DNA of 25,150 nt from a virus (IMGVR_UViG_3300008050_000286), one strand, 5' to 3'. Counted from the stretch's first letter, positions 15,196 through 22,911 are shown. The notes: generated by a model not told the origin, from the sequence alone. Numbers and translations are program-made.

Positions 15196-15510
15196 GTGAC
15201 GCGAAGGGATCTTCGTCCAGGTGCCCAGGTGGCACAAGTGGCACACGCAATGAGACTCTTTTCGGAGGAGCACCCAGAGCTTGACCGAATGTGGTATCAA
15301 AATTCCCGTTACCTGGCCTGCTTGGCTGCACCCAATGAAGACGAGCTAGTCAAATTGGCAATGCGGTGCGAGGATAGAGAGTTGGCATATTCAATCTTCC
15401 GAGAGCCAGATTTCGACAATGCGATCACTGCGATTGCTATTGAACCCACGCGCGAAGGCCGTCGAGTTACGAGCAATTATCCTCTAGCTCTTCGAGACAT
15501 CAAAAACTAA
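15196..15510 (+). CDS. pth2: Peptidyl-tRNA hydrolase, PTH2 (archaeal/eukaryotic type)
   Basis: (K)LYIVTRRDLRPGAQVAQVAHAM... and ...NAITAIAIEPT match the Pth2 pattern VVVRxDLxMGKGKxxAQxxHA ... TAVAIGP. Annotated from GTG 15196. An upstream in-frame ATG 15154 is separated only by TAG 15160. Confidence 0.75.
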   Translation: MTRRDLRPGAQVAQVAHAMRLFSEEHPELDRMWYQNSRYLACLAAPNEDELVKLAMRCEDRELAYSIFREPDFDNAITAIAIEPTREGRRVTSNYPLALRDIKN

Positions 15511-15556
15511 ACATCGAGATTGATTCAAGATAGGATCGTGGCGACTGGAGGCTCAC

Positions 15557-16129
15557 TTGGATGTGTGGTTCTCGGGTCCTCACGGTCCTCTTGATCTTTT
15601 GGCGGCTGAGTGGATTCGCCAGACTAAGAGCACGTTGTGGGTTGCGTGCTACCTTGAACCGCGGGGTCCCGTTGCGATTGAGCTTGCTCGTTTAGCAGTG
15701 GGCGGAAAAGACGTCCGCGTGATCATGGACGCCGACGCAACTCGTCGAAAGACTAATTGGCCGAGCTTCTACGTTCAGAAGCGACCCAAGGGTGGTCGAA
15801 TGCATCACAAGTTCATGGTCCGCGACGGATCAGAGGTGCTGGCATCATCCTACAATTTCACGCAAGGGAAGGGGAACGCTGACTTCATGATGACTGTCAG
15901 GTCTCGGCCCGTGGTAAGTAAATTTCACCGAGAGTTTCTTCGTCTCGAGAAGCTTCCTGATGTAGCCGCACCGCTCAAAGGCAAGCGTGCATCGAATCTG
16001 ATTCGTGCAGCCAAGCGAAAAGCAGGAAAGAATGCTTTTATCACGCAGGTTGAGACTCGATTTAAGCAGCGCGGATTCTTGACAGAAAGAGAAGCAGCAG
16101 CTCTCCGAAAGATCAAGAAAAAGAAATAG
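15557..16129 (+). CDS. Phospholipase-D/HKD-family protein, single HKD motif (Nuc-like nuclease candidate)
   Basis: HHKFMVRDGSEVLASSYN fits HxKx4Dx6(G/S)SxN. TTG start with GGAGG 5 nt upstream. Lys-rich C-terminus. Confidence 0.6.
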   Translation: MDVWFSGPHGPLDLLAAEWIRQTKSTLWVACYLEPRGPVAIELARLAVGGKDVRVIMDADATRRKTNWPSFYVQKRPKGGRMHHKFMVRDGSEVLASSYNFTQGKGNADFMMTVRSRPVVSKFHREFLRLEKLPDVAAPLKGKRASNLIRAAKRKAGKNAFITQVETRFKQRGFLTEREAAALRKIKKKK

Positions 16130-16170
16130 CGTGTAAATTGTCCCTTGCGAGTGGTAGAGTATCACTATCA

Positions 16171-16242
16171 GCCCCGTTAGCTCAGCGGCAGAGCAGTCGA
16201 CTCTAAATCGATGAGTCATGGGTTCGATACCCATACGGGGTA
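16171..16242 (+). tRNA. Second amber suppressor tRNA, anticodon CTA
   Basis: Acceptor GCCCCGT/ACGGGGT, D-arm GCTC-AGCGGCAG-AGC, anticodon stem GTCGA/TCGAT with loop CTCTAAA (CTA at 16203-16205), T-arm ATGGG-TTCGATA-CCCAT. No CCA. Confidence 0.75.
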
Positions 16243-16257
16243 CTTTCAGAGAGAAGA

Positions 16258-20248: not shown

Positions 20249-20818
20249 ATGAATCAGGGAACTCTTTTTGAAGCTTCTATGATGGATGTAGCAATGGACA
20301 TCGCGCAACGTGCCCACTTTGGTCAGGTTCGTCGCGGTGATCGTTCGCCTTACATCACCCATCCTGTAAGGGTTCGAGCGATTGCGGCTCGCTTTGGATA
20401 CTCTAAGATCGTGCAAGTCACAGCAATTGTGCACGACTCGGTCGAAGATTCTCAAGATCCAGATGCTACAAGCCGTGAGATCAAGGCAAAGCTTCCTGCC
20501 ATCCACCCGATTGTTGTGTCGATGACGCATGCAAAAGGGACACCCTACCTCGATTATGTAGTGGGTATGGAGGGCGAAACACTCCAGGCCAAGCTCTCAG
20601 ACATGCTCCACAATTTGATGGATGGGCCAAGCCCGCGCCAGCGGCAGAAGTACAAGCGCGCGCTGGCTGCCATCTTTGATCGTCGAGGTGGTCCGCCCAC
20701 CGAGATTCATCCGGCGCACTGGGCTGAGATTTCCCATCAGGTCGGATTTGATCCGGAGCGAATCGGTGAATCTCTTTTGCGTGAGTTCATTTCTGGCACT
20801 CTGGTAAACGTTGTCTAG
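20249..20818 (+). CDS. HD-domain (p)ppGpp hydrolase-like protein (small alarmone hydrolase, SpoT/Mesh1 type)
   Basis: AHFGQVRRGDRSPYITHPVRV...AIVHDSVED fits AHxGQxRxxGxPYIxHPLxVA...LHDxxED. SD GGAGG. Confidence 0.7.
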   Translation: MNQGTLFEASMMDVAMDIAQRAHFGQVRRGDRSPYITHPVRVRAIAARFGYSKIVQVTAIVHDSVEDSQDPDATSREIKAKLPAIHPIVVSMTHAKGTPYLDYVVGMEGETLQAKLSDMLHNLMDGPSPRQRQKYKRALAAIFDRRGGPPTEIHPAHWAEISHQVGFDPERIGESLLREFISGTLVNVV

Positions 20819-21533
20819 CGGGCCTCACGCACCCGATTCAATCAACTGGGACCTTTCAGGTCTTGCCGACGACGTTCTCGCTGAATTCAATGATCGATTT
20901 GCGTTAGCAGTCGATCACGGTGCAGACAAAGTCATTTTCCACTACAACGGATGTGAGTGGAATTTTGAGTCTCGACGCAAAGCTTCACGAACTGATGTAT
21001 CAGGCCAGATCAGTCAGGAAAGTTTGAGTTGGCACGATTTTGACTTGTCCGGAATCGAAGTTGTTGTTGATCTGGCCTCTGCTGAGCCGCTCATCGATGG
21101 ATACTTCGACTTCGATCCTGCTGATCCTGACGACACTGGCGGTATCCGCGTTTATCTGAGTGTCACTGAGTGTTCTATTGATACTGTCAGGATTGCTCGG
21201 CAAGTTCGAGCAACACTTGTTCACGAGCTTTATCACGCCGGTTGTCGTTCGTCGAAGCCTATTGACTACACCGGAGGCCTGCTTTCCTTCGAAGACCACC
21301 TCACTGACTCAGAGGAGATTGGTGCTCGGGTTGAGGAGGCAATGGCGCTCATGGCAGTTGATGAAAATCCTGCTCACGTTCGCTTGTTTGAGAAGACGCT
21401 TTGTAGCCTAATCGAATGCTACTTGACACGAAATGGAGTAGCTCTCGACGACGCTCGTTTTGAAAGTCTTAGCTCTGAGATGTTCAAATCTCACATGACC
21501 GAGTACCGTTGCGTCATGGGTTTCTTCGGATAA
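20811..21533 (+). CDS. Hypothetical protein with HExxH motif (putative zinc metallopeptidase)
   Basis: ATLVHELYHAGC; TTG start overlaps the HD gene stop; otherwise unassigned. Confidence 0.45.
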   Translation: MSSGPHAPDSINWDLSGLADDVLAEFNDRFALAVDHGADKVIFHYNGCEWNFESRRKASRTDVSGQISQESLSWHDFDLSGIEVVVDLASAEPLIDGYFDFDPADPDDTGGIRVYLSVTECSIDTVRIARQVRATLVHELYHAGCRSSKPIDYTGGLLSFEDHLTDSEEIGARVEEAMALMAVDENPAHVRLFEKTLCSLIECYLTRNGVALDDARFESLSSEMFKSHMTEYRCVMGFFG

Positions 21534-21542
21534 GGAGCATTC

Positions 21543-22433
21543 GTGATCTTCCCTGATATCAACGAGTTCAAGAAGCATTTCGACGCAACGTATGATGACA
21601 ACACCTTGATGGTGACCACGTCAGGAGGCTTTGATCCCGTTCACATTGGTCATCTTCGATGCCTCAGGGGTACTGTTGCTGTGGCTGAGGACATGTCTTC
21701 GGGTGATGAAACAGCAATCGTTGTTGTCATTGTCAACGGTGACGGCTTTCTCATTAGGAAGAAGGGGCGACCCTTCATGCCTCACAGTGAGCGCATGGAG
21801 ATTATCGACGGCTTTGAAGGGATTGACTTTGTTGTAGGTTGGGATGACGGCACCCAGACTGTCGAGGGCGCCATTAAAGCACTAGAGCCTGATGTTTTCA
21901 CTAAGGGTGGCGACAGGACTGACGCCTCCAATGTTCCGGAGTTTGGAATCTGCACTCAGGTCGGGTGCGATATCATGTTCGGTGTGGGCGGCGGCAAGAT
22001 TCAGTCGAGCAGTGATCTTATTGCTGCAGGCTCTGATCCTGACAACTTTGATATCACTCTCGAGCCAGATCATATCTGGATGAGTCGGTTTAGCCGTCGC
22101 GTTGAGAAGCCTTGGGGTTCTGAGGAGATTTTGGTCGAGACCGACCGGTACGTTGCCAAAATTCTTACAATTCTATCGGGCCACCAGCTTTCTCGACAGT
22201 ATCATGAAGTGAAAGATGAGACAATCATGGGCCTTGAGGGCATTTGCGCCGTAGAGATCGGCCCCAAAGACAATGTCGAGACAGTTTTCATCGAGAAAGG
22301 GACAGTTCGCAGAATCCTTCCTGGAACTATTCATCGGTTCAAGCATTGGGATGGTTATGTCCGCCTTCTTGAGATTAGTACTCCGGAGCTCGATGATGTC
22401 ATTCGTCTAGAGGATGACTATAGTCGCACCTAG
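21543..22433 (+). CDS. HxGH nucleotidyltransferase (cytidylyl/NMN-adenylyltransferase superfamily) fused to a C-terminal cupin domain
   Basis: TTSGGFDPVHIGH resembles the GGTFDPxHxGH motif of NadD/NMNAT/TagD. C-terminal WGSEEIL...GHQLSRQYHEVKDETIMGLEG...LPGTIHRF is cupin-like. GTG start after TAAGGAG. Confidence 0.6.
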   Translation: MIFPDINEFKKHFDATYDDNTLMVTTSGGFDPVHIGHLRCLRGTVAVAEDMSSGDETAIVVVIVNGDGFLIRKKGRPFMPHSERMEIIDGFEGIDFVVGWDDGTQTVEGAIKALEPDVFTKGGDRTDASNVPEFGICTQVGCDIMFGVGGGKIQSSSDLIAAGSDPDNFDITLEPDHIWMSRFSRRVEKPWGSEEILVETDRYVAKILTILSGHQLSRQYHEVKDETIMGLEGICAVEIGPKDNVETVFIEKGTVRRILPGTIHRFKHWDGYVRLLEISTPELDDVIRLEDDYSRT

Positions 22434-22446
22434 TTAGAAGAGCGAG

Positions 22447-22911
22447 GTGCTAATGTCTCTTCTTCGAGAGTACGTCAAGCTCATTCTGACAGAGAGCGAA
22501 ATTGTTGAGCATGACGGTGCCGGAATCATCGTCGTTCAGGAATTTGATGGCGAGTGGAAAGTTCTCGGTCTGGAAGACAGTGAGGGCATGGACTTTCCCA
22601 AGGGGCATGCCGAGGACGGCGAAGATCCTTTGACAACTGCGCGCCGAGAGACTGAGGAAGAGTCTTCATTGGCTGCTGCAGATCTGGATTTCAGGTGGGG
22701 CAAGGATCCACTCATCATCGACGGTCACCTCTTTCTGTACTTGGCTGCAACTGAAGCCGAACCCGAGATTCAGCGCAATCCTGAGACTGGGGAGAAGGAG
22801 CACACGGGCACGAAATGGATGACGTTTGATGAAGCAGAAGAGTCAGCGCTATATTACTTGAAGCCTGGTGTTGTTTGGGCTCGAGAGAAGATTCAGCACG
22901 TCGACGAATAA
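22447..22911 (+). CDS. Nudix hydrolase
   Basis: GHAEDGEDPLTTARRETEEESSL fits Gx5Ex7REUxEExGU. Confidence 0.55.
   Translation: MLMSLLREYVKLILTESEIVEHDGAGIIVVQEFDGEWKVLGLEDSEGMDFPKGHAEDGEDPLTTARRETEEESSLAAADLDFRWGKDPLIIDGHLFLYLAATEAEPEIQRNPETGEKEHTGTKWMTFDEAEESALYYLKPGVVWAREKIQHVDE

Follow-up and report, generated by a model that had tools for sequence, protein, structure and literature searches.

Background

Jumbo phages carry a repertoire of RNA-repair enzymes, PTH2, and Nudix hydrolases, which was reviewed by Iyer, Anantharaman, Krishnan, Burroughs, and Aravind (Viruses 2021, PMC7824862) and read there as a set of counter-measures to host attack on translation. Enzymes of the RlaP family append one or two nucleotides (NMP) at damaged RNA 3'-OH ends (PMC12776372), and bacterial-type Thg1-like 3'-5' polymerases (TLPs) repair 5'-truncated tRNA in vitro (PMC3061083). 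Small alarmone hydrolases (SAHs) undo pyrophosphorylation of the tRNA CCA (10.1101/2021.04.30.441581), and in phages that have recoded TGA, RF1 is found alongside TGA suppressors (10.1101/2021.08.26.457843). Here, we compare a locus of an uncultured marine jumbo phage with these systems. The window, i.e., the whole stretch of 25,150 nucleotides that was analysed (IMGVR_UViG_3300008050_000286), is the distal part of a very large tRNA array or island. It contains 41 tRNAs, and further tRNAs lie upstream.

Results

Gene content and conservation

An earlier note on this DNA had listed a series of ORFs, each of which is present on the plus strand, where or close to where it had been placed; most of the family labels hold by profile or structure search (Table 1). 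A GIY-YIG homing-endonuclease-like ORF lies within the tRNA array. We identified a sister genome (288-kb contig) with ~79% nucleotide identity and identical gene order, and since the order is retained at this distance, the genes are not chance ORFs. Ka/Ks values against the sister genome revealed strong purifying selection on the enzyme genes (0.02–0.13), i.e., 0.029 for RlaP, 0.093 for the phosphoesterase, 0.050 for the TLP, 0.027 for the SAH, 0.130 for the HExxH protein, 0.024 for the NTase-cupin, and 0.052 for the Nudix hydrolase.

Table 1. Features of the window and the matches on which their labels rest.
Feature	Position	Strand	Evidence or remark
RF1-like class-I release factor without domain 1, 225 aa	12954..13632	+	profile and alignment
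tRNAs Gln(UUG), opal-suppressor-type (UCA), amber-suppressor-type (CUA)	14650..15040	+	end of main tRNA array
Short phage PTH2-like peptidyl-tRNA hydrolase homologue, 104 aa	15196..15510	+	Pfam, PHROGs
Single-HKD PLD-superfamily protein, Lys-rich C-terminal tail	15557..16129	+	PLDc_2 6e-12
Second tRNA(CUA)	16171..16243	+	tRNA search
Small ORFs, 91, 57, and 77 aa	16258..16835	+	ORF calls
RlaP-family Pol-beta nucleotidyltransferase, 364 aa	16890..17984	+	PF10127 6e-24
tRNA(CAU)	18036..18113	+	between RlaP and phosphoesterase
ApaH-like (PPP-family) metallophosphoesterase, 318 aa	18133..19089	+	Metallophos 1e-17
Small ORF, 118 aa in other assemblies	19086..19449	+	start/stop overlap phosphoesterase and TLP genes
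Bacterial-type Thg1-like 3'-5' polymerase (TLP), 256 aa from ATG 19446	19437/19446-20216	+	Thg1 domain 2e-30
Small alarmone hydrolase (single-domain RSH hydrolase), 189 aa	20249..20818	+	HD_4 / RSH hydrolase
HExxH protein, zincin-like, 240 aa	20811..21533	+	HExxH motif invariant
HldC-like (HIGH-motif) sugar/polyol-phosphate nucleotidyltransferase + phosphomannose-isomerase-type (PMI) cupin, 296 aa	21543..22433	+	CTP_transf_like + PMI cupin
Nudix hydrolase, Nudix box intact	22447..22911	+	NUDIX 1e-14
YeaH (DUF444) + start of SpoVR	22983..25150	+	PrkA just past window end

We compared 84 related loci (80 from IMG/VR and four from other metagenome assemblies). The most frequent layout, NT-NT-Nudix-YeaH-SpoVR-PrkA, was shared by 29 loci, and NTase/cupin and Nudix were combined with the PrkA-operon block in at least 46 of the 84. 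The SAH was found in 12 loci, the HExxH protein and the release factor in five each, and PTH2 in three, while RlaP, phosphoesterase, TLP, and PLD occurred in none (0/84). The complete order including RlaP–phosphoesterase–TLP is retained in the sister genome only, and gene content from the tRNAs to the PrkA block varies in every relative examined. As the NTase/cupin–Nudix–PrkA block occurs without RlaP, phosphoesterase, TLP, and PLD, the region does not represent a single system, and we lean towards reading it as a mosaic of three modules of differing evolutionary depth rather than as one machine. Every family except that of the HExxH protein has already been described in phages.

Release factor, PTH2-like protein, and PLD protein

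The release factor (RF) homolog that had been noted upstream is RF1-like (193.7 bits for RF1, 116 for RF2, and 61.5 for PrfH). It is made via a prfB-style +1 frameshift, in which 37 codons lead into the cassette GGAGG-tcc-CTT-TGA-C (13054-13068) and from there into the frame of the ORF at 13018-13632. Over its full length, the joined product can be aligned with residues 88-312 of RF1; it contains GGQ and has PPS as the codon-recognition tripeptide. We observed the cassette in five independent orthologues, its stop codon being UGA in four and UAG in one.

The PTH2 label was supported by Pfam (E 5e-7; 30.3 bits, cut-off 23) and phrog_1866 (6e-15), and homologues were found in 229 phage records, among them those of huge phages of 735 kb (45% identity). 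The score is far under the NCBIfam equivalog cut-off, and the GK lysine and the DAG motif were not seen in the alignment to a solved Pth2. The label HKD nuclease likewise agrees with an intact HKD motif (HHKFMVRD...SSYN) in the PLD protein, for which one phage record only contained a homologue and no solved structure was matched by sequence. Among the small ORFs that follow, those of 91 and 77 aa (Ka/Ks 0.28–0.30) have no family in Pfam or NCBIfam, and the 91-aa ORF has none in PHROGs.

A lineage-specific insert of RNA-terminus enzymes

PLD, RlaP, phosphoesterase, and TLP form an insert confined to this lineage. The Pol-beta NTase is of the RlaP type and not a kanamycin-type enzyme; it matches phrog_388 over its full length (1e-69) and carries the GS...DxD motif (GSRSYGTSTPTSDTD), and no match to any solved structure was detectable by sequence. 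The phosphoesterase had been labelled PP2A-like, which is correct at superfamily level; at a finer level it is ApaH-like, with T. brucei ApaH-like 2QJC as nearest solved relative (4.5e-20). It contains the motifs GDIHG, GDVVDKG, and GNHE, shares 81% amino-acid identity with the sister-genome copy, and resembles the Pnkp phosphatase domain 4J6O in part of its C-terminal region, but misses all ApaH equivalog cut-offs (80.7 vs 176 bits). Its homologues elsewhere rarely adjoin RlaP (4/73 loci) or a TLP (1/73). Overlapping stop and start codons join phosphoesterase, 118-aa ORF, and TLP in an operon-like packing, and the 118-aa ORF is disrupted in the window by a 7-bp duplication at 19263-19269.

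The TLP matches B. thuringiensis TLP 4KGK at 2.4e-73 (phmmer) and eukaryotic Thg1 only at 1e-13 to 2e-17. It has the motifs RVDGKAF and QSDE, with DAVRNSV in place of the Thg1 HINNLYN. Homologues occur in 164 phage records (phrog_4717), with ~50% identity to the Bacillus-phage ones. As had been noted, the tRNA-His (Rfam body 8457-8527) encodes its own G-1 (G8456, paired with C73); its CCA is genome-encoded as well (8528-8530). Because G-1 is provided by the genome, a role of this bacterial-type TLP in tRNA 5' repair is more likely than G-1 addition, in line with the earlier proposal. RNA ligase, polynucleotide kinase, and CCA-adding enzyme were absent from the ~45 kb examined, and since RlaP is defined by its association with ligases, what is visible here is an incomplete repair pathway.

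The alarmone hydrolase and the PrkA-associated block

The SAH label was supported by matches to Lmo0812, MESH1, and a (p)ppApp hydrolase, and the HD, ED, and DMLHN motifs are legible in the sequence. In 12 loci, an SAH gene is again found inside the PrkA starvation-operon block. In the window, it overlaps the HExxH gene by 8 nt, and both are fused in the relatives P0126, P0132, and L014 (a 451-aa protein in the latter), which links the two proteins functionally. The HExxH protein had no Pfam match, and its domain matched no named family; it founds a small uncharacterised zincin-like family.

The next protein had been described as NMNAT-like with a cupin, acting together with the Nudix hydrolase on NAD. 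The HxGH transferase and the cupin were recovered, whereas an NMNAT identity was not supported: no NMNAT model matched, and the NTase domain is best assigned to RfaE domain II (8e-15) and HldC (5X9Q; 5.7e-8 by sequence, TM 0.78 by fold). The cupin resembles archaeal PMI (TM 0.80-0.86), and Gln219, His221, Glu226, and His264 are invariant. The enzyme is thus of the sugar-nucleotide type, but does not lie in a glycosylation cluster. The cluster of the relative L014 includes a phosphomannomutase gene, and the homologous domains adjoin nucleotide-sugar epimerase genes in cyanophages. The Nudix gene is conserved beside NTase/cupin in 48-49 of the 84 loci, and both belong to the conserved YeaH-SpoVR-PrkA block. 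The transferase type and this conservation speak against a pair directed at NAD; the tie to the PrkA operon itself is positional only.

Discussion

With moderate confidence, we propose a three-module explanation that includes ligase-independent rebuilding of tRNA ends and reprogramming of host starvation. The first module, common to distant relatives, would be a layer of translation termination and tRNA recycling made up of the RF1-like factor and the PTH2-like hydrolase. The second is the lineage-specific insert (PLD, small ORFs, RlaP, tRNA(CAU), ApaH-like phosphoesterase, 118-aa ORF, and TLP), by which damaged tRNA ends may be trimmed and rebuilt without a ligase. The phosphoesterase would strip a 3'-phosphate, a 2',3'-cyclic phosphate, or another blocking group, RlaP would then extend the freed 3'-OH by one or two nucleotides, and the TLP would rebuild lost 5' nucleotides with the 3' acceptor strand as template. 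The phosphoesterase is closest to ApaH and ALPH enzymes, and its substrates could instead be Ap4A, Np4 caps, or proteins. The third, clade-wide module comprises the SAH with its HExxH partner, the HldC-like NTase/PMI-cupin, and the Nudix hydrolase, and is continuous with YeaH-SpoVR-PrkA. Here, the SAH may clear (p)ppGpp or (p)ppApp, or pyrophosphate added by toxSAS to tRNA CCA ends, the NTase-cupin may produce an NDP-sugar (mannose- or heptose-like), and the Nudix hydrolase may cleave an NDP-X compound; the module and the PrkA operon could jointly reprogram the starvation state of the host. For all modules, we infer the substrates and the order of reactions.

The earlier note had taken the nine enzymes and the release factor as one tRNA-healing and anti-defence system against host anticodon or acceptor-stem nucleases, with the SAH and an NMNAT-Nudix pair countering ppGpp- and NAD-based defence. 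The genes are co-directional and tightly packed in the tRNA array, the sister genome keeps their order, and the jumbo-phage review counts RlaP, TLP, PTH2, and phosphoesterases among the components of RNA repair (PMC7824862). However, the NTase is not NMNAT-like, at least 46 loci have NTase-cupin and Nudix alongside the PrkA operon but lack RlaP, phosphoesterase, and TLP, neither ligase nor kinase was seen in the ~45 kb examined, and the phosphoesterase family has no general association with RlaP or TLP, which makes a single system very unlikely. We also regard it as fairly unlikely that the genes have no functional relation, the array end being an insertion hot spot whose theme mirrors the commonness of RNA and nucleotide enzymes in jumbo phages. 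The GIY-YIG ORF in the array, the differing tRNA-to-PrkA gene content of each relative, the lack of the RlaP-phosphoesterase-TLP group outside the sister lineage, and the polymorphic disruption of the 118-aa ORF would fit such a hot spot, but three RNA-terminus enzymes lie side by side, partly with stop/start overlaps, and purifying selection is strong. Moreover, in Bacillus phage Goe8, a TLP gene lies ~3 kb from RtcB, which indicates that TLPs recur near RNA-repair genes.

Alternatively, ApaH-like phosphoesterase, SAH, and Nudix hydrolase might erase nucleotide signals without any role in RNA repair, degrading Ap4A or Np4-capped RNA, (p)ppGpp or (p)ppApp, and ADP-ribose or NDP-X, respectively, so that a starved host stays translationally active. 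The top matches of the phosphoesterase (ApaH and ApaH-like phosphatases), the resemblance of the SAH to (p)ppGpp and (p)ppApp hydrolases, its place in the PrkA block, and the counter-nucleotide systems described in jumbo phages (PMC7824862) agree with this. We consider it rather improbable, as the phosphoesterase has RlaP and TLP instead of SAH and Nudix as neighbours within the lineage-specific insert, misses the ApaH cut-offs, and has the Pnkp-like C-terminal part. Regarding the release factor, a genetic-code switch together with the suppressor tRNAs, as in recoded phages, rather than ribosome rescue, is possible but doubtful. The factor is of RF1 type with codon-reading domains retained, 1.1 kb downstream of it there is an opal suppressor tRNA, RF1 and TGA suppressors occur together in TGA-recoded phages (10.1101/2021.08.26.457843), and the orthologue of the 634-kb phage LR745206 contains in-frame TGA codons and no frameshift. 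On the other hand, all three stop codons terminate genes in the window (TAA 8, TGA 7, TAG 7), and two amber suppressors are at odds with an RF1-type factor.

Comparison with known systems

Like the jumbo-phage repertoire (PMC7824862), the locus combines a large tRNA array with RlaP, a Thg1-family polymerase, PTH2, phosphoesterases, and Nudix or other nucleotide-targeting enzymes; as the review covers these and NAD modules, the combination is not as unusual as the earlier note had held. It differs in that RlaP, ApaH-like phosphoesterase, and TLP are directly adjacent, that the Nudix partner is a sugar-nucleotide-type NTase instead of NMNAT, and that no ligase or kinase lies within ~45 kb, whereas RlaP tracks RNA ligase distribution in the survey. 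The PF10127 NTase is shared with the Pseudomonas RtcB-RlaP-RtcA operons (PMC12776372), but in the phage it adjoins a phosphoesterase and a 3'-5' polymerase rather than RtcB and RtcA. The TLP has the catalytic motifs of the B. thuringiensis (PDB 4KGK) and phage TLPs and also lacks HINNLYN; its context differs from that in Goe8, as its gene comes after that of an ApaH-like phosphoesterase within a tRNA island. With MESH1, ATfaRel, PaSpo, and others, the SAH shares the single-domain RSH hydrolase and the HD, ED, and DxLHN motifs; known members cleave (p)ppGpp or (p)ppApp and are able to take pyrophosphate off tRNA CCA ends, while the phage gene is translationally coupled, and in relatives fused, to a zincin-like HExxH domain. 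The NTase-cupin resembles ManC (GDP-mannose pyrophosphorylase/type II PMI) of the clusters with Gmm (NudD) and ManB in that a nucleotidyltransferase precedes a PMI-type cupin in one polypeptide, a Nudix gene is adjacent, and one relative has a phosphomannomutase in its cluster. However, its transferase has the HIGH-motif HldC/TagD fold instead of the GlmU-like fold of ManC, and its conserved neighbours are YeaH, SpoVR, and PrkA, with no glycosyltransferases nearby. Finally, the release factor gene shares the SD-like GGAGG, the 3-nt spacer, and CTT TGA C with the autoregulatory +1 frameshift of bacterial prfB (RF2), and its product lacks domain 1 like PrfH, but differs from both in being RF1-like by score, with the tripeptide PP[S/T/N].

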